Shown piece by piece: positions 4,786 through 55,212 of a stretch of DNA of 64,000 nt (position 1 is its first letter; each line of letters starts with the position of its first letter). The stretch covers positions 1-64,000 of the forward strand of contig CANLTW010000008.1 in the NCBI GenBank assembly GCA_947494155.1. The letters run 5' to 3'. Position numbers and translations under genes: made by a program. Source of the stretch: Chlamydiota bacterium (lineage in GTDB: Bacteria > Chlamydiota > Chlamydiia > Chlamydiales > RGXB01). The notes under the pieces were generated by a model. That model searched no databases. It was not told where the DNA came from and worked only from the letters and a program-made list of their open reading frames with translations.

Positions 4786-5427
4786 TTATTCCCAATAGTA
4801 AGGTCCATAATCTACCGTAAGCTCCTCGTCTTTTTCCACACGCCGATTTGTGAAAAAAATGATTCTAGGGAGGTTGTCGATCAGAAGCCACCTGGATAAA
4901 AGATTTGGATTGTCGCTGTGATTGATAAATCTTGTGTGATTTCCCTGTTTTTCAGCATCAATCACATACCCTGTATCCAATGTATCTATGGCATATTCAA
5001 AAATGTAGCTATTGTCCCGATCCTTTTTTTTGTCCCTTTTTTTGACAACACCCACATATTCCCCTATGCAAGTCATTTCAAAAAGAGTGTTATTCGCAAA
5101 AAGACCGGCCCCTTTTAACTCATCAATCGGGCGAACAGACATTTTTTGTCGTATCCCCGCGAGCTCACGTTTAAAAAGCGCCAAGTTCCAGCGGTTGAAG
5201 GAGCGAAAAGCGGGATCCTTTAGACGATTTTCCCCTTTTTTTTGTATGGATACGCGATCTACATTCTCATGGTAGATAAGACTTTCAAGATAGCTAAAAC
5301 CATAGTACTGACTTAAAGACTCAGCCTCGTCGGGAATCAGAAAATCCCGAGCAATTTCCACCATAAGCTCCCTACAATACCCCAAATCAAAATATTGACT
5401 AAACTCAATAGAAATCCTATCTTCCAC
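4786..5427 (-). CDS. SET-domain protein-lysine methyltransferase (NUE/CT737-like); true start probably near 5364
   Basis: GAGLFA, GEYVG, DAEKQGNHTRFINHSDNPN and EELTVDYGPYYW; as called it overlaps the upstream DASS gene by 91 nt. Confidence 0.93.
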   Translation of the reverse strand: MEDRISIEFSQYFDLGYCRELMVEIARDFLIPDEAESLSQYYGFSYLESLIYHENVDRVSIQKKGENRLKDPAFRSFNRWNLALFKRELAGIRQKMSVRPIDELKGAGLFANNTLFEMTCIGEYVGVVKKRDKKKDRDNSYIFEYAIDTLDTGYVIDAEKQGNHTRFINHSDNPNLLSRWLLIDNLPRIIFFTNRRVEKDEELTVDYGPYYWE

Positions 5428-45026: not shown

Positions 45027-45481
45027 AAATCCCTTTTACCCCCTTTATCGTTCAAGAAGGCTTCATACTTTACTTCTGCTCTCCCTTTATTTAGTAGTAA
45101 AACCAAGATAAAGGGGGCTATGAAGCCCGAATAATTCTCTAGAAAATTTTAAAAAAAAGCTATTGCTGTGTTTTACTTTTGTACTCCAAGACTTCAACCC
45201 TCACCCTCCCCACCTTAAAGCGTTTTAAAAACTAAAACGTGAACGGGTGCTTTAGCACATTTTCCTTAAACTAGAGATGCATTTGAGCTACCCCATTTCA
45301 TTTTTGTTTTTTAGTTATATTTGAAAGCGTCCTATCAAATATAACTTAAAGGTTGCGATATAGAGATTGGTTTAATTTTTCTTTGTTTCGAGAGAATATA
45401 AAATGACCCCCCTCTCTCATTTTTTTTACAAAACAAGAAAGGTGTAGCGGTAAGTTTTTTGGTAACCAAGAAAAGAAAAGC

Positions 45482-48472
45482 TCAGCTTACACTAGGAGCT
45501 GATTTTTTGATTTCAGCTAAAAGGCTGTCTCTAAATATCCCTGGCTCGGACGCAAGCTCTTGATAGCTCCCTACCTGAGCGACTTTTCCTTTATCCATTA
45601 CATAAATGCGATCCGCATTTTTGATGGTGCTGAGCCTGTGGGCTATCACGATTCTCGTGATATTCAGCTCATCGATATTTTTCGATATGAGGTCTTGCGA
45701 CTCAGAATCCAAACAATTGGTCGCTTCATCCAAAATGAGCATACTCGGATTCGATATAAGAGCTCTGGCGATTAAAAGACGCTGAGCCTCCCCATTACTT
45801 AATGAGGAGCTTTCCGGTTGAACTACAGTGTGTAGACCCATACCCATTTTTTCTAGGTCTTTGTCGAAGTTAGACATTTTCACTGCACGGTCTATCTCTT
45901 CTTTTGTATAGATCCCGCCACAAACAATGTTACTGTACACAGTTCCTGAAAAAATAGAGCCATTTTGTAGCACAACACCCATTTTTTTTCTTAGTTCGCG
46001 CAGATTGAGGTTGCGAATATCTTTATTATCAAAATAAATAGTTCCCATCTCCGGAGTTTCAAAACCGAGTAAAATCCTCAAAAGTGTAGATTTGCCACAG
46101 CCTGTAGATCCAACAATTGCAATAAATTCCCCGGGTTGCACATCAATCGATACGTTTTCCAAAACCAAAGGGAGCTCTTTTGAGTATCTAAAAGAGATAT
46201 TATCTACATGGACTTCCCCTTGTAAATTATCGGGTTTGATTTTATCCTCCTCCGGCTCTATCTCCCCTTCTAGAATAACTTTTGCCCGCTCCCAAAGGGG
46301 AAAAATCGTTGCTATGTTAACCAAAGTTCCTACAAGCGAGGTGATGCCCGAAGAGAATGGGATATAAGCCGAAAAGAATCCCACAAGTTCCCCAATCGAA
46401 AAAATATAGTCGTTGCCGAAGGATTTACTAAAGAATAACCTGTCTGAGATGATGGAGAAAAAAATCAAGTAAGAGATGATATTTGTGATATAATTGATCA
46501 CCTGGACGATATTCGTTAAAAAAAACGACTGGTTGAAATAAAGGCGTTCTTCTGCAAAAAAGTTACACCAATAGTTAAATGCTTTGGTCTCAGCTCCCTG
46601 GCTCTTGATTTTTGCTATACCCGATAGCAACTGTATAATCACACCGTTGATAAAACCTTTGATCTTAAGAAGTTTTCTTAGAATCAGGATTTTATTATAA
46701 AGCACAATAGTATTTATTGTGGAGACGAGGAATACTATTAGAAAACCTATGCGTGCTAATTCCAAAGAAAAATGGCGCATAGCTACAAAATAAAAAACAG
46801 AAAAAATACCCGTTAAAAGAACATTTGAAACAGACTGTGTGCAAATATTTTGGATTTGATTCATCGATTGGGCTCTTTGGACCAAGTCTCCGGCACTAAA
46901 TTGTCTGAAAAAATTTACCGGTAGTTTTAAAAGCCGATCCCAAATAGCCGATTCGATTTTGAAAGAGAAAAGAATGGACAATCTCATGAAAGCTACTAAG
47001 TTTACGACCGAAAAGAACAGCTGGCTGAAAATCACCAGAAACATCCCGATGACCACTTCAAAAAACTCCCCCCGATGACCTAGCTGAATCACATTTAAAA
47101 ATAGGGTCTGATTCAAAAAAGGGAAGGCTATTCCTAAAAGCCCCCCAAGACAACCATAGATAAAAATCGATAAGAATGTCTTAAGATCGTATTTTGTGAA
47201 AAAAGTCAAAAATAGGGTCTTGAGATTGAGTTTCCCTTTCGGAAAAGGGAAATAGAGGGAATAGGCTTTTTTATCGAGTTGGTCATAAATTTTTTTGTCC
47301 AGCTTGGTCAGCTGCTGTGATATTGGGTCATGAACGTAGTAACTTATACCTCTAAAATTCAAAAGAGCGACAGGTTTATTATCTAATGTGAAAGCAAGTA
47401 TGGGTAGGCTATCGTATTTCCAAAAGCGATCCACTAAGTTTATTTCCCTTAATCTTACCCCATTTTTTTCACAAATTTCAAAAAGTCTCGGTAGCGGTTC
47501 TTTACGGACTAGAAGGTTTTTAGTAAAAGTAAAACCCATTTGCCGACCGATCCAAAAACAGGCTGTAAATATGGGATCGCTGTAATCGGTTAGGTCTTGG
47601 GACTGTTTGAGTGAAAGGATCGAAAACTTTTTCAAGGTCTCAGAAAGGACCCCCTTTTCCTCAAATATTTTTTGTTGGGATAAAATCTTTTCCTCTTTTT
47701 GTTTTTGAGGAAAATAAAAAAGAGTCGTTCTTTTAAAAGTGCGTTGTTGAATTAACCTCAGTGATTTCCAGATATCGGGATGAAACAACACTCTTTCTTT
47801 GGGAATTGTAGCCATTCTGGTTTTTTTGAGAGCGATAAGATTCCAGGAATCAAAGAAAGGGAATATCCCCAAAGACTCCTCCCACCCAGTAGAATTTTTT
47901 GAATCAATATCGACATTCCCCTCCAAAATCTCCATCCAGTGTTCGTGATCAATACACTCGCCAGTATTTTTTTTCTTGATAGTGAAATGTTCACCCTCTG
48001 CGATTTCCACAGGTTTTTCAAAATCGATGATTCTTGAAGAATTTTTATTGGATTCTTTTTGAGTAAAATTTTTTCGGGTTCCGGTAATGGTAGTATTGAT
48101 CCTGAGAAGAATTTCTAAATTTAGCTCAGGGTGTTTTTCTAGAACACCAATCAATTTTTCGCTTGTCAACTTGACCAGCTTCATAGAGGTAAAATTATAA
48201 AGAAAAAAACCTTTATGGGTTTTAGATTCTTGGTTGAATAAAAAATAGACGTCCCCTTGATTAAGAGAATGAATCATCTTCATGGGGGCTTCTGTGATTC
48301 CTATAACCTGTTGCTGGCAGAGCTGTTCTTGGACATAAACACCGCCAGACCCTTCGATCACAAACCAGATGCATTCCTCGCACGGAAAAAATGATTTGGT
48401 ATTTCTTGGGATGAATTTTTCCTCAAGTCCAAGCCCCTTTATTGTCTCAATAAATGCAAACGAATCTTCCAT
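45482..48472 (-). CDS. NHLP-type bacteriocin export ABC transporter, permease/ATPase subunit
   Basis: cNMP-binding-like N-terminal region, TM domain with AIWDRLLKLPVNFFRQFSAGDL, NBD GSTGCGKST / LSNGE / ILDEAT / IAHRLST. Confidence 0.9.
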   Translation of the reverse strand: MEDSFAFIETIKGLGLEEKFIPRNTKSFFPCEECIWFVIEGSGGVYVQEQLCQQQVIGITEAPMKMIHSLNQGDVYFLFNQESKTHKGFFLYNFTSMKLVKLTSEKLIGVLEKHPELNLEILLRINTTITGTRKNFTQKESNKNSSRIIDFEKPVEIAEGEHFTIKKKNTGECIDHEHWMEILEGNVDIDSKNSTGWEESLGIFPFFDSWNLIALKKTRMATIPKERVLFHPDIWKSLRLIQQRTFKRTTLFYFPQKQKEEKILSQQKIFEEKGVLSETLKKFSILSLKQSQDLTDYSDPIFTACFWIGRQMGFTFTKNLLVRKEPLPRLFEICEKNGVRLREINLVDRFWKYDSLPILAFTLDNKPVALLNFRGISYYVHDPISQQLTKLDKKIYDQLDKKAYSLYFPFPKGKLNLKTLFLTFFTKYDLKTFLSIFIYGCLGGLLGIAFPFLNQTLFLNVIQLGHRGEFFEVVIGMFLVIFSQLFFSVVNLVAFMRLSILFSFKIESAIWDRLLKLPVNFFRQFSAGDLVQRAQSMNQIQNICTQSVSNVLLTGIFSVFYFVAMRHFSLELARIGFLIVFLVSTINTIVLYNKILILRKLLKIKGFINGVIIQLLSGIAKIKSQGAETKAFNYWCNFFAEERLYFNQSFFLTNIVQVINYITNIISYLIFFSIISDRLFFSKSFGNDYIFSIGELVGFFSAYIPFSSGITSLVGTLVNIATIFPLWERAKVILEGEIEPEEDKIKPDNLQGEVHVDNISFRYSKELPLVLENVSIDVQPGEFIAIVGSTGCGKSTLLRILLGFETPEMGTIYFDNKDIRNLNLRELRKKMGVVLQNGSIFSGTVYSNIVCGGIYTKEEIDRAVKMSNFDKDLEKMGMGLHTVVQPESSSLSNGEAQRLLIARALISNPSMLILDEATNCLDSESQDLISKNIDELNITRIVIAHRLSTIKNADRIYVMDKGKVAQVGSYQELASEPGIFRDSLLAEIKKSAPSVS

Positions 48473-48475
48473 ATC

Positions 48476-50689
48476 CTACTCAATAGACTCAGATAAAATT
48501 GCAGCTTTATAAAAACCCTCTTGAAGCATCAGTTCCTCATGCGTACCCCTTTGGACCACAGAACCATGATCTAAAACAAGAATTTCATCGCAATCACGGA
48601 TTGTGGAGAGCCTCTGCGCTATAATAAGGGCACTGCAACCCCTTTTTCTGAGGTTTAGGCTGACAAGTGCTTCCGTTTTATAATCCAAAGCACTGGTTAT
48701 CTCATCGGTTATGATCAGAGTAGGGTCTTTAATTAGAGCTCTTGCTATTTCCATCCTTTGCCTTTGCCCACCACTAAAAACACCACCCCCCTCGATCAGG
48801 TGAAAATCGTAACCTGAAGCTCTCTTCATAATATCATCATGAATACATGCATCCTCAGAGGCCCTTATTAAAGGTTCATCATCTGCATGCTCATCCCAAA
48901 AAGTGAGATTGTCTTTTACGGACCCCTCGAAGAAAAAAAGGGTAGAATCCACATAGGATACAGAGGCTTTAAATAGAGCTTCAGGAATTTCCTCTATGGG
49001 TTTCCCATCAAACAAAATTTTTCCTGACCAGGGTTTGAAGAGAGTTGATGCCAGGCGTGCTATAGTTGTTTTTCCACTCCCCACGGGACCCACAATGCCG
49101 ATTCTTTTTCCCGGCTCCAATTTAAAAGAGATGTTTTTTATAAATGGGGGTTGTAGTGCACTAAAGCCAAAAGAGACATCCACGAACTCTAAGTAGCCAT
49201 TAAGTTTACCCTCCGAGATGTGACACACATTTCCTGAATTACCTAGCGATCCTTTTTCGGGTTGGGTTTGTAAAACATCATCCAATCTTTGCACGTTGAT
49301 TTTCATCGTTTGTAAATTATTCGACATATTCATTAACCCCTGAACAGGCGTCATGAAATAGGCTAGAAATGATTGCAAAGAGAGAACCATTCCAATGGAA
49401 AGATTCCCTTGATAAATCTCTATAGTCCCAACCGTTAATAGAATCACATTGCCTAATTGCATCGTTAATGAGGGAAACATCGTAAGAATAGTACTACGAA
49501 TTTCCGTCTTTAGTTCGGCATTACGCATCTTCGCATAATAACCCGAAAAAACCCCAAAAGATGCGGACTCATTTCCAGCAGATTTTATTGATTCTATAGA
49601 GCGTAAAATACCGATTCCATAACCCACGGATTTACCATACTCCTGCTGCATGATTGTGAAGGCATCATTTCTGGAACGATTGATCAGAAAAAACAGTAAA
49701 ATATTGAGAGCCGCTAAAGAAAGCCCCAAAATAGCAATAGGGACACTGTAGATGAAAATGACCGCTAGGTAAAAAAAGATTAAAATAACATTGAGGGCGA
49801 GTGTGATCAAACTACCTGAAATCAGAGAGGATACCTCTTCGTTCAAGGTAAATCTCCAACCAAGTTCACCGACCGCTCTTTGACTGAAGAAGCCAAAAGA
49901 GAGTTTCATAAGATGGGAAAAAAACACTGTAGAGAAATCTATACTCATCTTTGTATAAAATTTTCTCAACATTTTCGCTTGTGTAATTCTTAACCAAACG
50001 GTCACTACCGTAACAATAAAGAGCAGTCCTACCAGAAGTAAACCGAAACTCGAATTGTTGGTGGTGAGAACTTTATCGTAAAAAAATTGTATAGAAATAG
50101 GCAAAAAGAACCAGGGCAAAAGGAGAAACACAGAAAGAAAAGAGAGATACGAAAGGGGGCCGTAATATCCTTTAAGACGACGAAAAAGGGGGCGTATAAG
50201 CTCAGGTTTACGACCTGAAGGTTGAAATTCTTTAGTAGGCTTAAAGGTCATTATAAAACCTGTAAACCCCTCTTCAAAACTTGCCCAGCTCATCCTTTTA
50301 GGGCCAGAGGCAGGGTCATTCAAGTAGACAAATTTCTTGCTAACACCCTCAATCACGAGAAAATGGTTAAAATTCCAGTAGACAATACTCGGTAGAGGGA
50401 CTTCGATAATCTCATCTATTTCATAGGTCCAACCATCCGCCTCAAGTCCAAGATCCTCTCCTACTTTAATAATATCATCTGCATCGGATCCATCTCTAGT
50501 CACTCCGCAAAGGACACGTAGGGTCTCTAGAGGAACAAATTTACCGTAGTAGGCCAAAATTATAGCCAGAGCCGCTGCTCCACATTCTACCATCTCCATC
50601 TGAATAATGGTGGGCGTGCGAACCCGTCTAATCCCCCTCAAAGAGCACCAGAAGGTCGATGTGAAGATATTTTTTAACCAGGAAAACAA
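48476..50689 (-). CDS. NHLP-type bacteriocin export ABC transporter with C39 peptidase (PCAT)
   Basis: RVRTPTIIQMEMVECGAAAL (Cys), WNFNHF (His), LNDPA (Asp); NBD GPVGSGKTT / FSGGQ / TDEITS / IAQRLST. Confidence 0.94.
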   Translation of the reverse strand: MFSWLKNIFTSTFWCSLRGIRRVRTPTIIQMEMVECGAAALAIILAYYGKFVPLETLRVLCGVTRDGSDADDIIKVGEDLGLEADGWTYEIDEIIEVPLPSIVYWNFNHFLVIEGVSKKFVYLNDPASGPKRMSWASFEEGFTGFIMTFKPTKEFQPSGRKPELIRPLFRRLKGYYGPLSYLSFLSVFLLLPWFFLPISIQFFYDKVLTTNNSSFGLLLVGLLFIVTVVTVWLRITQAKMLRKFYTKMSIDFSTVFFSHLMKLSFGFFSQRAVGELGWRFTLNEEVSSLISGSLITLALNVILIFFYLAVIFIYSVPIAILGLSLAALNILLFFLINRSRNDAFTIMQQEYGKSVGYGIGILRSIESIKSAGNESASFGVFSGYYAKMRNAELKTEIRSTILTMFPSLTMQLGNVILLTVGTIEIYQGNLSIGMVLSLQSFLAYFMTPVQGLMNMSNNLQTMKINVQRLDDVLQTQPEKGSLGNSGNVCHISEGKLNGYLEFVDVSFGFSALQPPFIKNISFKLEPGKRIGIVGPVGSGKTTIARLASTLFKPWSGKILFDGKPIEEIPEALFKASVSYVDSTLFFFEGSVKDNLTFWDEHADDEPLIRASEDACIHDDIMKRASGYDFHLIEGGGVFSGGQRQRMEIARALIKDPTLIITDEITSALDYKTEALVSLNLRKRGCSALIIAQRLSTIRDCDEILVLDHGSVVQRGTHEELMLQEGFYKAAILSESIE

Positions 50690-50700
50690 AGCTTTACCCC

Positions 50701-51756
50701 TCAGTTAAAAAGATAATTTATGGGGGCATCTTCAGTTATGCGAACACGAAGGTGGCAAAATTCGGGGGTTATACGTATGTTTTCAGGCCCCTTTCCTGAT
50801 GTCCATGCATACCCTGACGGATCGTTGGGGTCTTTTTGAATTTCCACCCGAATGTTATATTTTGGTACGATACCACCAATAAATTCTATAAAAGTTTGAT
50901 CTTTTCCTATTAATCTCAAAAACCTCATTGAGGTTCCTGGGTAAGGATCCACGTATACAACTTTCCCTTTTAGACTACCGTAAATAGGATTGACATACTT
51001 TTCAAAGGAGATGAAAACCTCCATACCCTCAGCAATTCTGCCGCCGTTAGTTACATCAAAAAAGCCGTAGACATCAATCGGCTCCCCCCTATCAAATGGG
51101 GGATCCACAAGCCCTAAAGCTAGACCCGCTTGAGCAAACTCCCCTGCTCCCACATAACGGGCTATCACTTCACCTTCTACTTCCGAATAAATCGGAACCA
51201 AAACGGGATTATCCTGCATGCCCTGTAAAATTTGCGTTTCGTTTTCCAACTGAGTACGTAATAATAACGACTCAGAGGAATCGCCATTTTCTATAGCCTT
51301 TTTTAGATTGATCTCGAGCTGGTGAACTTTTGTCCCCTGGTCATTAAAAGAATCAAGAAAGTTTTTTTCATACAAATAGGCTATTACGGTGCTTTTATTT
51401 ACTATTTGTCCCTGACTAAGCTCGACAGAATAAATAAGGCCGTCTGATTTAGCGTATAAATAGAGAAGACCCTCCTTTTGTACAACAAGGCCACGACCAA
51501 CGGCATCTGTTGTGATTCTACCGTTGAATAACCAAATGAATAAAAAGCACACAATCAGACCTAAGCAGGCTAAACCTACCCACTCTTTAGGGCGGATTAT
51601 TTGGATTAGACTATTGAGATCTTCGGGGGAAATAAATTTGTCAACTTTTCCCTTTCTAAAAAAAGTTTCCTCCTCATGATCTGGAGGGGTAGCCTCTCCC
51701 GGATTTTCCGACTGGGGATTTGTTTTCAGCTCCTCCCCCTTTTTTTCCTCATCCAT
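50701..51756 (-). CDS. NHLP-type bacteriocin secretion protein (HlyD family)
   Basis: FR...SPEDLNSLIQI, TM helix, YGSLKGKV, SGYAWTSGKGP, C-terminal PINYL. Confidence 0.9.
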   Translation of the reverse strand: MDEEKKGEELKTNPQSENPGEATPPDHEEETFFRKGKVDKFISPEDLNSLIQIIRPKEWVGLACLGLIVCFLFIWLFNGRITTDAVGRGLVVQKEGLLYLYAKSDGLIYSVELSQGQIVNKSTVIAYLYEKNFLDSFNDQGTKVHQLEINLKKAIENGDSSESLLLRTQLENETQILQGMQDNPVLVPIYSEVEGEVIARYVGAGEFAQAGLALGLVDPPFDRGEPIDVYGFFDVTNGGRIAEGMEVFISFEKYVNPIYGSLKGKVVYVDPYPGTSMRFLRLIGKDQTFIEFIGGIVPKYNIRVEIQKDPNDPSGYAWTSGKGPENIRITPEFCHLRVRITEDAPINYLFN

Positions 51757-51817
51757 AAATTACAATAAACCCCATAGTTTGTTTACCTAATCCAATAAGG
51801 TAATAAAGTCAAAGAAA

Positions 51818-53425
51818 TTAAAAAGTTAAACAGTCAAAATATCGTAAAAAATTACGTGATTTACTTTTGGGAAACAGCGATTTTAGCACCGGTCTACCCA
51901 ATTCTCCGCTAACGGCGCTCTTTACTAAAAAGAACTGTTTTTTTAATGAGGCCTGAGAAAGGTTTTTCACATTTTGAATGAAATTATCCATAGGGGATTT
52001 TTTAAAAATTTTTATTTTTTTCTTTTGGAATTTTGGGGTATACAAAACCTCATCTGCTCTGATCAAAAAGTGGGGGATATTTTGGGTTTTCATCTCTTTG
52101 ATTTCCTGAGACCGCATTGACCTTGTCATTTTAGGGACAACCCAATAGGGGTGCGGTAGATTTTTTAAAGCGTTATCCATTTTGCGGCTATTTTCTAAGT
52201 GAAACAAAGAATCAGCGACAATCTGGCCGTACATAGCTGTACCTTTGTATACAATTCTTATCAATGCTTCAGAAAAAGGTCGTAGAGCACCCTCATCAGA
52301 GGTAAGAGCCTCCAAAAGGGGCTTTTTAACACTACATAAAAAAGAGAACATGTCTAAAAAACCGTTCAAAAACGCCTGCTTATTCCCTTTTGAAAGCCTG
52401 GAAAAACTTTTTGCGCTAATTCTATTTTTCTTATCTGTGGAAAATTCTAAACCAATCCCTGCCTCTTCCTTGTAGCTTTTTGAGCACCGCATATGGTAGG
52501 AAAAAAAACCGGTTCTCAAAGCGCAACGTTCGAATATTCCATGGGATCTTTGATCTAAAAAATTGCCGGACAGAAGACACTCTGCATCGATAACAACAGG
52601 GTCCACCCCTGTTTTTAAAAAGTTTTCTGAATGAAAATCGGTGGATCCCATAACGGTGGTTAAAGCGGTCAGAGCTCCAAGGTTGTTATGGTATTTTCTG
52701 ACTGTCTCTAACTTTTTTGAAGACGTTTTTTTTATAAACTTATACCAACCGTAGCTTCCCCGATCGAGACAATCAACTTTCTTTGGAACATAAGGGGAAT
52801 TGTAGCTACGAAGCCAGTCACTTAGGGCGCAAAAAGCGAGATTGATTTTAGCACTGTTGGGTTTGTAGACCACTTTTCCATGAATAAAGGTAAGTACTGC
52901 TGCTGATCTTTGCTGGTTATGCAAATCCCCTTTATCCAATTCCAATCGCTTTATGTACCTTTTTTTGTCGGATGGAACCATTCCAGTAAAAGGGGTTATA
53001 AGATCCAAATCCGATTTGACCCGATCAAATATCTCCGTTATATATTGCACCCAATATCCAACATTCAAATCCAATAGCTCTTTTAAAAGAGGGGTTTTTT
53101 TCAAGGTCTTTTCCCATCCTCCATTTAAAAGGATCCCTAGAAAAGGTTTATATAAAGGATTATGAAGCGGATTAAATTCTTTAAATAGGATCGTATGCAG
53201 TTTATATCCATAAATTTTTTGATCGTAGTTATCGAGCTCATTTAGAAGTGTGGGTGTAATAAGGGTGAGTATGCGATAGGAAAAATTTTTAAAAAGATCG
53301 TATTGAGCCTTAGCATCTAAAATCGGATCATAAAAAAGGGGGTTTAAAAGATTTTGGTAATCCTTAAGAATGAACCCCATGATTTCCCTAAAAGGTACTC
53401 TTTCTTTTAAAGAAAAACCCTTCAT
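51818..53425 (-). CDS. Stand-alone LanM N-terminal dehydratase domain (DUF4135), no cyclase
   Basis: GDLH, VVYKP, GWYKFI, TDFHSEN, VIDAE, RIVYKGTAMY, NIPHF; ends at 535 aa without a LanC domain. Confidence 0.9.
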   Translation of the reverse strand: MKGFSLKERVPFREIMGFILKDYQNLLNPLFYDPILDAKAQYDLFKNFSYRILTLITPTLLNELDNYDQKIYGYKLHTILFKEFNPLHNPLYKPFLGILLNGGWEKTLKKTPLLKELLDLNVGYWVQYITEIFDRVKSDLDLITPFTGMVPSDKKRYIKRLELDKGDLHNQQRSAAVLTFIHGKVVYKPNSAKINLAFCALSDWLRSYNSPYVPKKVDCLDRGSYGWYKFIKKTSSKKLETVRKYHNNLGALTALTTVMGSTDFHSENFLKTGVDPVVIDAECLLSGNFLDQRSHGIFERCALRTGFFSYHMRCSKSYKEEAGIGLEFSTDKKNRISAKSFSRLSKGNKQAFLNGFLDMFSFLCSVKKPLLEALTSDEGALRPFSEALIRIVYKGTAMYGQIVADSLFHLENSRKMDNALKNLPHPYWVVPKMTRSMRSQEIKEMKTQNIPHFLIRADEVLYTPKFQKKKIKIFKKSPMDNFIQNVKNLSQASLKKQFFLVKSAVSGELGRPVLKSLFPKSKSRNFLRYFDCLTF

Positions 53426-53988
53426 TATGCTTTACTTCCTTTTTTGTCTAAATAAACAAAGGGAAGTTCTGGGTCTGTCTCTAAGTCAAAAGATTTAGCG
53501 AGAAAGATTTTTGCCTGAACCGTAAAAGCACATCCAAGGTAGCCTAAGATCTCCCCTTTGGATATGCCCATTTTGGCTAAACTTTGCAGATCTTTTGAGG
53601 AAATTTTCCCCTTTTTATCAAAGTATTTCCTTAAAAACCGTAATACCGCATGGACTAAAGCATCCTCGGATTTCCCTCTATAGTTAAGATCCGTTTCTTT
53701 TTTTACTCCCTTTCTCTCTTTCAATGGAGAGCCATTTACCATTTGATATTGATACAGATCTCTTATGTACGGGGTATTGTAGTAGCCGGCCATCATAATA
53801 TTGATCGCTCCCCCCAGCCCTTTTGGGTAGTTGGTGACTTTTAAGGGGATAAATTTTTGATAGCTTAAGATAAACGCATCTGAAGATTGCATTAGCCTGA
53901 GTCCTCTAAGCCGAAAACCAAAAGTAGAGACCGAGTTATCAAGACGTTGTTGCGCTTTTTTATTAAGGCTTGGATAATCTATGAACAT
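53425..53988 (-). CDS. AhpD/carboxymuconolactone decarboxylase-fold protein lacking CxxC
   Basis: Family pattern RGKSED...AVLRF...KKGKISSKDLQSLAKMGISKGEI; the NxCxYC position reads YNTPYI. Confidence 0.7.
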   Translation of the reverse strand: MFIDYPSLNKKAQQRLDNSVSTFGFRLRGLRLMQSSDAFILSYQKFIPLKVTNYPKGLGGAINIMMAGYYNTPYIRDLYQYQMVNGSPLKERKGVKKETDLNYRGKSEDALVHAVLRFLRKYFDKKGKISSKDLQSLAKMGISKGEILGYLGCAFTVQAKIFLAKSFDLETDPELPFVYLDKKGSKA

Positions 53989-53994
53989 ATAAAA

Positions 53995-54465
53995 TTACAA
54001 CTCCTCAAAAACCACGAATGAATTAGCATGTTTTGTGATAAAATCTGACCAATTTAAATGGCCACACAGATCCACAATCTCCCGATTGTCAAAACCTGCA
54101 TGGATTAAGTCGGTAACATCCTTTTTTTTGATATTTGTTTTTGAACCGAGCATTTTTAGGGTAAATTCCACTGCTGCTTCAGCCATCTTTTCCTCTTTTT
54201 CTGACATTTTTTGAGAAAGATTTCGATTAAGTGCCCCCGCAAGGTAACGGCGCTGAAGAAACTCGGCTAAGGATAATTTGCAACCATTAAATTCTGCAGT
54301 CGCTAAAAAGACTCCAAGTTGCACAACATAAGGGATGGTGCTTTTTTGTAACCCTTTGATGTATCCTATATACCCTTTTTCATATTCTGACTTACCTTTT
54401 CCCATTTTAGACCAGGGCTCGATAAGACCGTTTTCATTTATTTTTTTACGACTTTTTTTTATCAT
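53995..54465 (-). CDS. AhpD/carboxymuconolactone decarboxylase-fold protein, CxxS variant
   Basis: LATAEFNGCKLS, AAVEFTLKM, DVTDLIHAGFDNREIVDL. Confidence 0.75.
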   Translation of the reverse strand: MIKKSRKKINENGLIEPWSKMGKGKSEYEKGYIGYIKGLQKSTIPYVVQLGVFLATAEFNGCKLSLAEFLQRRYLAGALNRNLSQKMSEKEEKMAEAAVEFTLKMLGSKTNIKKKDVTDLIHAGFDNREIVDLCGHLNWSDFITKHANSFVVFEEL

Positions 54466-54747
54466 CTGGGTAAACCTGTAAAAATTTAATCACTTACAAA
54501 AGGAAGGGTCTCTTCAAACTAGCATCTGTTTATGGTTTTTTGACTTTTAAGTGCTCTTTTTTTGTTTTTGCTAGTTCATTTCTCCTTAAATTTTTAATTG
54601 CCACATAAATAAAAAAGAATACAACAAAAAATTAAGAAATCTCCCCCGTCAAAAAAAGATAAAATTTTTTTCATAATATCGGCCAGCTGTGATGCACTTT
54701 GGACTAAACTAGATCTATCGAGCTCTTGTCTGCTTCGTTTTGTTTAG

Positions 54748-54782
54748 AAAAAAGACTACAAATACTTAGTTTTTGTAGTCTT
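54748..54782 (-). terminator. Intrinsic terminator after the precursor gene
   Basis: AAGACTACAAA (54752-54762) / TTTGTAGTCTT (54772-54782) 11-bp stem running into a U tract on the minus strand. Confidence 0.75.
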
Positions 54783-54824
54783 AAGAAAAAGATGTGAATT
54801 GGTTTATTTTTTATTTTGTCGGTT

Positions 54825-54941
54825 TTAAGGTTTAGAACCCGGCGTTGTAAACCCACCTCCGCCTCCGGTAATTTTCTTTTCACGATTCTTATCTGAGGAT
54901 TTCTGCTCTTTTTTGCCCGGGTTTTTAGGTTGCTTTTTCAT
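54825..54941 (-). CDS. Putative RiPP precursor, 38 aa, double-glycine leader: MKKQPKNPGKKEQKSSDKNREKKITGG|GGGFTTPGSKP
   Basis: Too short for the ORF track; AAAGGGA RBS 8 nt before ATG; SDKNREKKITGG resembles the LSxxELxxIxGG consensus; first gene of the cluster; followed by terminator. Confidence 0.85.
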   Translation of the reverse strand: MKKQPKNPGKKEQKSSDKNREKKITGGGGGFTTPGSKP

Positions 54942-55004
54942 GGTCTATATCCCTTTTGTTTTCTTTCAATTATCCTAAATCAAAAAAAACTGCAAATGGT
55001 TGAA

Positions 55005-55010
55005 ATTATA
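55005..55010 (-). promoter_or_regulatory. Candidate -10 box for the precursor gene
   Basis: Perfect TATAAT on minus strand about 64 nt upstream of the ATG; no clear -35 and region is AT-rich. Confidence 0.35.
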
Positions 55011-55212
55011 TTTCTTTACAAACATATTTTTTAAAAAACTCCTCTATTCACTTGATTCATAGGATTAAAAAAATTTTCTCAAATGAGCGTTTTTTTCTTG
55101 ATTCAATAGGGTTTCTTCAGTATGAAAAATATTTTAAACCTTAAATCGACATGGTTTTGAGTATTCAAAGCCTTCGATTAGGGACATACGTTTGATGACT
55201 GTAAGGGGACCT

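Follow-up and report, generated by a model that had tools for sequence, protein, structure and literature searches.

Introduction

What does the exporter operon in this chlamydial DNA export, and is the short open reading frame (ORF) at its head a gene at all? The window, by which we mean the whole stretch of 64,000 nucleotides (nt) analysed here (contig CANLTW010000008.1 of a Chlamydiota bacterium, assembly GCA_947494155.1), carries on its minus strand a 38-codon ORF followed by a hairpin, by genes for two CMD/AhpD-like proteins and a LanM-type dehydratase domain (DUF4135), and by an exporter with a C39 peptidase. An earlier note, made from the letters alone, had taken the ORF for a hidden precursor-type gene heading the operon of DUF4135 protein and C39/NHLP-type exporter, and the pattern of its alleles, its paralogues and their absence from gene calls bear this out. 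We consider it probable that the small ORF is a real gene, the operon-linked member of an eight-gene precursor family with a new, short and basic double-glycine leader, whose product would be cut and exported. That the ORF goes beyond chance is indicated by its allele pattern, its occurrence in other samples, its GC content and its paralogues. The members of this phylum are thought to lead an intracellular life in eukaryotes, and the target of a secreted peptide could thus be the host or competing bacteria.

Allelic variation of the tail

The sole locus obtained from a metagenome scan was a contig (L028) that is 98.74% identical to the window over 13,605 nt without a gap. Codons 1–30 of the small ORF are identical in DNA between the two (0/90 differences), whereas half of the following 20 bases are changed, which turns FTTPGSKP into QAIPGGRP. 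Five of the eight tail residues are altered with frame, length and stop preserved, and the only residues common to both alleles are P34, G35 and P38. This cassette is the sharpest hot spot of the 13.6-kb locus: every other 20-nt window holds at most four differences, and the binomial probability multiplied by the number of windows is about 2e-10. The hairpin region shows no difference (0/43 bases) and the gap downstream differs by 3.9%; on the other side of the ORF, the stretch with the promoter-like site (54942–55001) shows none and the next one (55002–55031) five. Synonymous changes outnumber non-synonymous ones in each of the enzyme genes (19 versus 6 in the dehydratase). With the leader identical, the swap of eight residues is direct evidence, at the level of the population, that the tail is the selected part.

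Two tail alleles were seen, and no silent donor cassette for the second was found in the genome. The window's allele is also present in DNA contigs from two other studies. A 151-nt metatranscriptome contig covers 54852–54953 and continues, in frame, into a core of the QAIPGGRP type, with three extra changes in the leader (P8Q, G9E and Q13E); it stops at 54953, adjoining adapter sequence. This contig gives modest support for transcription over the small ORF, while RNA contigs do not cover 54605–54850 and such contigs cannot reveal transcript ends. The second allele also bears on the chemistry. The earlier note had envisaged up to three dehydrations of the core and addition of its Lys or N-terminal amine to a dehydro residue; as a conserved function this fails, because QAIPGGRP lacks Ser, Thr and Lys, and dehydration of this core therefore cannot be essential. 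Base composition also sets the small ORF apart, with a GC content of 0.43 against 0.30 and 0.27 in its flanks.

A family of eight uncalled precursors

A pattern scan covered 1,025 small ORFs outside long ORFs in the whole genome (G000), of which 11 passed a filter for leader, Gly run and tail: seven members of a family that includes the window ORF, one overlapping frame and three unrelated ORFs. An eighth member (contig C10, 9777–9914) stands in tandem with another. The family thus numbers eight in this genome, all of them uncalled by gene callers. Besides the window ORF, the members read MKKQSKKNTQSVKKKKNKKGGGGCGAILSLPGDPIGGVISITQGNMNNC, MQKQPKKNTQSVKKKKKQGGVCPDWGSISDVGRDAGKIGSAIFNC, MKKQPKAKVAKGKKSPVKGGGETIKATSGQTSNMDPNCGIQKVREY, MKKNAETKKSKAKNKKNIKKFGGGEGSWISIPQKGDIKVCGHD, MVKKHPKSSKSTAKKQLAKSKTISKEVTVKGGGNYTRNCTNGTYGGHP and MKKKGKKNIKDKKKSAKLKGGGCYDGSTGNMYQKK, and the tandem neighbour of MKKQPKAKVAKGKKSPVKGGGETIKATSGQTSNMDPNCGIQKVREY starts MKKQPKAKVPKRKKTTKKKIAGGG and continues into a 28-residue tail. 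All share one architecture, a Lys-rich head starting MKK (or MQK/MVKK) with 40–58% Lys plus Arg, a Gly run and a variable tail; K2, K3 and the GGG columns are common in the alignment. Each of the seven other tails has two or more Ser/Thr and one or more Cys, whereas the operon-linked peptide of the window has the shortest tail of the family and no Cys.

An SD-like (Shine-Dalgarno-like) word precedes the start in six of the seven members examined, or five of six when the window ORF is set aside. There are two paralogue pairs in tandem, and in a tandem pair an identical upstream sequence, GAAGAGGACAA, is repeated. The paralogues have unrelated genes as neighbours (for an epimerase, an F-box protein, and FabI-like and HemN-like proteins). 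The F-box-domain protein (361 amino acids (aa), of eukaryote-like type; contig C10, 10344–11429) adjoins a tandem pair. No family was found for the 38-mer at E≤0.01, and none in Pfam or NCBIfam at E≤1 for seven of the eight members (C10:9777–9914 not among them). The 38-mer has no exact entry in a collection of 15 billion proteins, and tblastn against its own genome gave the self-match only; the paralogues came from the later pattern scan.

A profile built from seven members matched seven ORFs in G000 and six in the same-genus genome G006, two of these at E≤0.01 and four more weakly; one of the two stronger G006 matches is an ortholog with near-identical leader and tail. The profile gave a single doubtful match, containing a stop, in G002, none in G001, G003 and G005, and none in a sample of 399 further genomes from the phylum (G043 not scored), which argues that it does not fire on Lys-rich noise. 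A strict DNA pattern (MKKQxK...GGG) had returned nothing in five same-genus genomes, and the G006 copies were found later by the profile. Judged by these matches, the genomes with the family are the genomes with the island, G000 and G006. Since all eight genes are uncalled, a secreted small-peptide layer of this environmental chlamydia would be invisible in current annotation.

Layout and signals of the small gene

The features are collected in Table 1. The 38-codon ORF, the AAAGGGA word and the 11-bp hairpin are all present as the earlier note had written them, and the hairpin does separate the small gene from the enzyme genes. SD-like words precede 16 of the 41 presumed gene starts in the window and 19% of random 15-mers; AAAGGGA is consistent with a start and weak evidence for one when taken alone. 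Promoter-like sites are not enriched in the window (4 versus a shuffle mean of 3.5). The hairpin begins 42 nt past the stop and folds at −12 kcal/mol (z = −2.9), with 1 of 200 shuffles as stable; a simple terminator scan did not list it. Folding of the whole leader transcript (54740–54960) gave no antiterminator or other pairing that competes with it, and a comparison of the window with Rfam gave no match at gathering scores. Mixed codons encode the five Gly (GGA GGC GGA GGT GGG), so that the run is not a slippery homopolymer. Fourteen ORFs of at least 20 aa overlap the 726-nt gap around the small ORF, and a length of 38 codons is therefore no proof against chance on its own.

Table 1. Positions of the small gene, its signals and the surrounding features in the window.
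Feature	Position	Strand	Remarks
38-codon precursor gene	54825..54941	-	ATG start; stop 54825-54827; translation MKKQPKNPGKKEQKSSDKNREKKITGGGGGFTTPGSKP
Conserved Lys-rich leader, residues 1-27	54861-54941	-	part of the 38-codon gene
Gly5 run, residues 26-30	54852-54866	-	part of the 38-codon gene
Tail, residues 31-38	54828-54851	-	part of the 38-codon gene
Hypervariable core cassette	54832..54851	-	10/20 bases differ between window and L028
Shine-Dalgarno-like AAAGGGA	54950..54956	-	8 nt ahead of the ATG of the 38-codon ORF
Promoter-like TTTGCA-16 nt-GATAAT	54969..54996	-	9/12 matches; upstream of the small gene
Intrinsic-terminator-like hairpin	54748..54782	-	11-bp stem 54752-54762 / 54772-54782, 9-nt loop region, U run
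26-aa ORF	54594-54674	-	MKKILSFFDGGDFLIFCCILFYLCGN; between hairpin and 156-aa gene
156-aa degenerate CMD/AhpD-like protein	53995..54465	-	TIGR01926, E 1.9e-4, below cut-off
187-aa CMD/AhpD-like protein without Cys/His motif	53425..53988	-	hhalign 95.4%, E 1.7e-8
535-aa LanM-type dehydratase domain (DUF4135) without cyclase domain	51818..53425	-	PF13575, E 1.8e-51
HlyD-type adaptor	50701..51756	-	nearest TIGR03794, 145.3 bits vs cut-off 156.2
C39 peptidase/permease/ATPase exporter	48476..50689	-	nearest TIGR03796, 833 bits vs cut-off 853.3
Second ABC subunit without peptidase	45482..48472	-	nearest TIGR03797, 690.9 bits vs cut-off 709.4
10.2-kb island	45027..55191	.	between membrane-fusion gene and AcrB gene of RND efflux operon

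In the 26-aa ORF, a hydrophobic tail containing three Cys comes after a Gly-Gly. It has no SD-like word ahead, and the Asp before its Gly-Gly is a Gly in L028. It may have arisen by chance or may encode a small membrane or immunity peptide.

The exporter, its C39 domain and the end of the leader

For the exporter trio, TIGR03794, TIGR03796 and TIGR03797 are the best models by far, each scoring just below its curated cut-off. The C39 domain is recognised by PF03412 (E 2.9e-32), and its C36, H109 and D125, which we take to be the catalytic triad, are invariant in 43 homologues. A complex prediction of C39 residues 15–165 (43-row alignment) with the 38-mer gave a score of 0.02 against a mark of 0.32, and favours neither side. 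The peptidase-less ABC subunit has about 298 extra N-terminal residues (47575–48472, minus strand) without a family match; the genus paralogues (50% identity over the full length) and G176 retain this extension, which is also present at L076 and L078–L080. A second exporter trio lies on another contig of G000 at 59% identity; it is conserved in the genus and has no peptide gene beside it. In a tree, the island exporter, together with that of G006 and one metagenome protein, is sister to the genus copies; it thus arose near this lineage and did not arrive from a distant one.

Of 400 genomes sampled from the phylum, 65 have C39-ABC homologues. The inspection of related exporter loci covered 22, with the 6 kb upstream for 20 of them and a stretch of 20 kb for the other two. 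NHLP precursors beside the homologous exporters are 94–105 aa long, and true ones score 72–81 bits. One stands beside the exporter in G393 (72.6 bits), a shortened one in G179 falls below the cut-off (46.4 bits), and G109 has a 63-aa precursor candidate without a family match. In G398 (L081, 13361–16317), the cluster is a classical one: two NHLP precursors (99 and 105 aa; 79–81 bits) are followed by a YcaO cyclodehydratase, divergent from genes for HlyD, C39-ABC and ABC proteins. The genome of the window itself holds no NHLP (TIGR03793) or Nif11 (TIGR03798) precursor above cut-off. The earlier note's description of a short, Lys-rich leader unlike those of NHLP precursors is upheld, with 27 aa set against whole phylum precursors of 94–105 aa and no model match. 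With this family, the double-glycine leaders that serve an NHLP-type exporter would gain a new kind that is basic and very short.

The leaders at the phylum loci end in KKIAGG, LQIAAG, GKISGG and KELAGG. The window leader ends in KKITGG, with I24 at position −4, one paralogue reads KKIAGGG, and five of the eight family members have I, V or L at −4 relative to their first Gly-Gly. The Gly5 run is present, but the ambiguity of the cut site that the earlier note derived from it is smaller than claimed, as KKITGG mirrors KKIAGG and the −4 position agrees across much of the family. Because the KKITGG end fits the NHLP leader ends of the phylum, the predicted cut is most likely behind G27, which would leave GGGFTTPGSKP. 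The double-glycine motif of 13 residues is described with Leu at 2 and 7, acidic residues at 1, 4 and 6 and Ser/Thr at 3 (PMC2887384). The 13 residues before the predicted cut are SSDKNREKKITGG, and only position 10 and the GG fit that logo.

The dehydratase and the CMD/AhpD-like proteins

The DUF4135 protein covers positions 10–271 of the 932 of the LanM model. Aligned with LicM2 and CylM, it places D167, H169, K188, D263, H265, N268, D280, R390 and T396 at CylM residues D252, H254, K274, D347, H349, N352, D364, R506 and T512, which were shown to be needed for phosphorylation and phosphate elimination (PMC4550811). R390 and T396 were assigned through the motif R-x5-T-x2-Y-G, in a stretch that is not significant alone. 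All nine residues are invariant in the only close relatives (P0003 and P0004; 79% and 63% identity). The L028 protein is about 99% identical, with six amino-acid differences and none at these residues. A HMMER search of 1.84 billion representatives returned the dehydratase family as a single cluster (1110 bits), the next match scoring 167 bits. Thirteen of the 150 best matches are shorter than 600 aa, which indicates that cyclase-less forms exist elsewhere. The dehydratase has no LANC_like match, and PF05147 is absent from the genome, which is 97.6% complete. Another cyclase-less DUF4135 type (508–522 aa, about 25% identical) occurs in three phylum genomes, followed by an ABC transporter. In two of these three, a conserved ORF of 75–77 aa stands ahead, with a CCA.GT motif and the end YGYLRM or YGYLRH (L011, 1581–1814; L013, 9069–9296); these ORFs have no family match.

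Neither of the two small proteins between the dehydratase and the hairpin has a Pfam match. The 156-aa protein aligns over its full length with the canonical 170-aa CMD/AhpD proteins of the genus, where it reads NGCKLSLAEF in place of NGCKYCTAAH, so that CxxC...H is reduced to CxxS...F and a single active-site Cys is kept. Language-model look-alikes of the 187-aa protein are CMD proteins in 26 of 30 cases, and those of the 156-aa protein agree; close homologues of the former number only three among 5.8 billion proteins. AlphaFold2 models of both were unusable (pLDDT of 36 for the 187-aa protein alone and of 42 for the 156-aa protein with a 5-row alignment). In the open-access and bioRxiv literature searched on DUF4135, on stand-alone or truncated LanM and on CMD/AhpD proteins with ribosomally made peptides that undergo post-translational modification (RiPPs), no such enzyme set, a dehydratase without cyclase and two degenerate CMD-fold proteins, was found described.

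The island and its genomic context

The genes for TolC, membrane-fusion protein (MFP), AcrB and patatin are contiguous in the same-genus genomes G001, G003 and G005, whereas in the window the island separates the MFP gene from the AcrB gene. The island set recurs in G006 at 81–93% identity, the sole carrier among five same-genus relatives (six searched). Scans of genome collections with the dehydratase gave first nothing and then only a 1.6-kb contig of G006. The organism is a freshwater chlamydia that has not been cultured: the sequencing runs that contain the DNA are lake and freshwater metagenomes, and in 14 DNA runs at least half of the words sampled from the stretch are present. No convincing direct repeats were found at the island ends. 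A 19-bp inverted repeat with a 4-nt loop (45309–45350) lies behind the last exporter gene and likely marks the end of the operon. In G176 an exporter trio comes directly after TolC-MFP-AcrB, and exporters of this kind may tend to be found together with outer-membrane components of efflux systems.

G001 has an extra exporter trio (contig C23, L077), with small ORFs upstream of its HlyD gene (4948–5154, minus strand). One is Lys/Arg-rich and ends in ...NKRGGY; an overlapping frame reads ...GGGINNEPYCVRLF, and the two are joined by a run of eight G, across which a shift of one base gives 38 codons. A third, MINRKVLEVGGSGGGQKIIFGVSNNLF, adjoins them. None of these ORFs shows DNA homology to the window ORF by alignment or matches the family profile.

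A proposed route and the alternatives to it

The following route can be proposed. The small gene would be transcribed from its own promoter, and the hairpin would end some of these transcripts ahead of the genes for the enzymes and the exporter. The C39 domain of the TIGR03796-like transporter would recognise KKITGG and cut behind Gly-Gly, and the HlyD/ABC/ABC2 machine, with an outer-membrane channel, would export a tail of 8–11 residues. The cyclase-less LanM-type enzyme might phosphorylate the Ser/Thr of FTTPGSKP and of the seven paralogue tails and eliminate the phosphate, and with no LanC in the genome the dehydro residues would remain. The QAIPGGRP allele offers no target to the enzyme and would leave unmodified, and the tail would be a cassette swapped between strains. 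A bolder extension holds that the island is a new maturation route, in which the dehydratase and an altered CMD/AhpD pair, replacing the missing leader-binding or ring-forming partner, serve eight peptides that the chlamydia, as an obligate associate of its host, would secrete, with the operon-linked tail swapped like a pherotype or target-specificity cassette. In this full form we regard the proposal as doubtful.

Several observations weigh against a secreted precursor. G000 and G006 are close kin, so that their joint possession of family and island is a single event, and an assembly gap in G006 takes in both the island-linked copy and the 156-aa gene. Leu and acidic residues are missing from the leader at the positions of the double-glycine logo (PMC2887384), and apart from M1 the leader has one hydrophobic residue, I24. 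The three alleles differ by 14 substitutions, every one of them non-synonymous, and the first half of the leader bears no signature of purifying selection; the all-non-synonymous pattern fits diversifying selection or cassette exchange. The RNA-library contig that spans the ORF speaks to the RNA check that the earlier note had suggested, modestly, since contigs from RNA libraries can hold DNA and this one has a depth of 5.2. Cleavage, export, modification and binding of the peptide are predictions from sequence. Finally, an allele without Ser and Thr leaves position as the only link between peptide and dehydratase. This paradox resolves if the dehydratase serves the whole family, which makes the operon-linked peptide the exception among its members.

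The peptides could instead be small, basic and intracellular, for example binding nucleic acid or ribosomes, neither cut nor exported, with one of them beside the island by chance. Heads as rich in Lys and Arg as these and the scatter of the paralogues among unrelated genes would suit such a role. We nevertheless think it unlikely, as the family is limited to the two island-bearing genomes, every member adds a Gly run and a variable tail to its head, the hot spot lies in the tail and not in the basic part, and KKI[AT]GG resembles NHLP leader ends. An obligately modified RiPP, in which DUF4135 dehydrates two Thr and the Ser and the core Lys or N-terminal amine adds to a dehydro residue, would account for the T, T, S and K of the window tail, for a dehydratase that looks catalytically complete and for the lack of any cyclase or available Cys. 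Such chemistry is very unlikely to be obligate when an allele devoid of Ser, Thr and Lys sits beside intact, 99%-identical enzymes and recurs in an RNA library, and when so little of the tail is kept between alleles (P34, G35 and P38).

The order of small ORF, hairpin and operon is also the classical layout of attenuation, where translation of a regulatory upstream ORF would govern read-through of the hairpin and the peptide itself would have no role. This appears highly improbable here, since no pairing rivals the hairpin in the folded region, the hairpin lies 42 nt past the stop, the Gly codons are mixed and the seven paralogues, placed among unrelated genes, have no operon of this kind behind them. 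That the ORF is a chance one, the true substrate of the operon being encoded elsewhere or not being a peptide, would agree with the frequency of ORFs of similar size in the gap, with the silence of gene callers and with the lack of a second copy in tblastn; it is scarcely credible against a frame-keeping hot spot, an RNA-library contig, paralogues with SD sites and a profile that finds nothing in 399 genomes. A genuine gene for an exported precursor is thus the reading that we retain, and its short leader offers a simple test case for what C39 peptidases and LanM-type dehydratases need for recognition.

Comparison with known systems

The operon-linked peptide is predicted to work like a double-glycine precursor of the NHLP-exporter type, and by the defining features of those families it is neither an NHLP or Nif11 precursor nor a lanthipeptide. 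With the NHLP/Nif11 systems it shares a three-gene exporter whose nearest models are TIGR03794/03796/03797, a Gly-Gly leader end, a hypervariable tail and paralogous precursors that are scattered and sometimes stand beside a LanM-like enzyme (PMC2887384). The same paper expects Cys-free cores to stay dehydrated (Haft et al. 2010, PMC2887384). The leader here has 27 aa, compared with about 80 structured residues in those systems, is rich in Lys and matches no NHLP/Nif11 model. The enzyme without a cyclase half, the two CMD-like proteins and exporter scores just under the cut-offs are further differences.

CcaM of the dehydrazole pathway, a divergent DUF4135 enzyme, resembles the role proposed here for the dehydratase in that it leaves dehydro residues and not lanthionines in an NHLP-type pathway (PMC10676384). 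CcaM depends on a class III cyclase-like domain to which it is fused, and its only targets are Ser residues adjacent to azoles that a YcaO has formed (PMC10676384), while in the present system there is no YcaO and no class III cyclase-like domain. The prochlorosins and ProcM (see also PMC10783134) offer a LanM-type active site that serves many precursors with alike leaders and unlike cores, mostly far from the enzyme, as here. Compared with class II lanthipeptides, a LanC-like domain is absent from both protein and genome, and neither allele of the operon-linked core contains Cys, nor does the second contain Ser/Thr; the seven paralogues have both. Without LanC and with a Cys-free core, the peptide is not to be classed as a lanthipeptide.

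The double-glycine leader peptides of class II bacteriocins and of peptide pheromones, with a TIGR01847-type motif (PMC2887384), share with the present system a Gly-Gly cut site (predicted here), a hydrophobic −4 residue and a dedicated C39 exporter. Here the leader lacks the Leu and acidic logo positions, the host is Gram-negative and of a chlamydial lineage, and domain annotation of the window recognised no sensor kinase or immunity gene beside the small gene. Pherotype variation is known from ComC and BlpC. Like those peptides, the one described here pairs a conserved leader with a mature part that varies among strains, and its export could proceed without modification.

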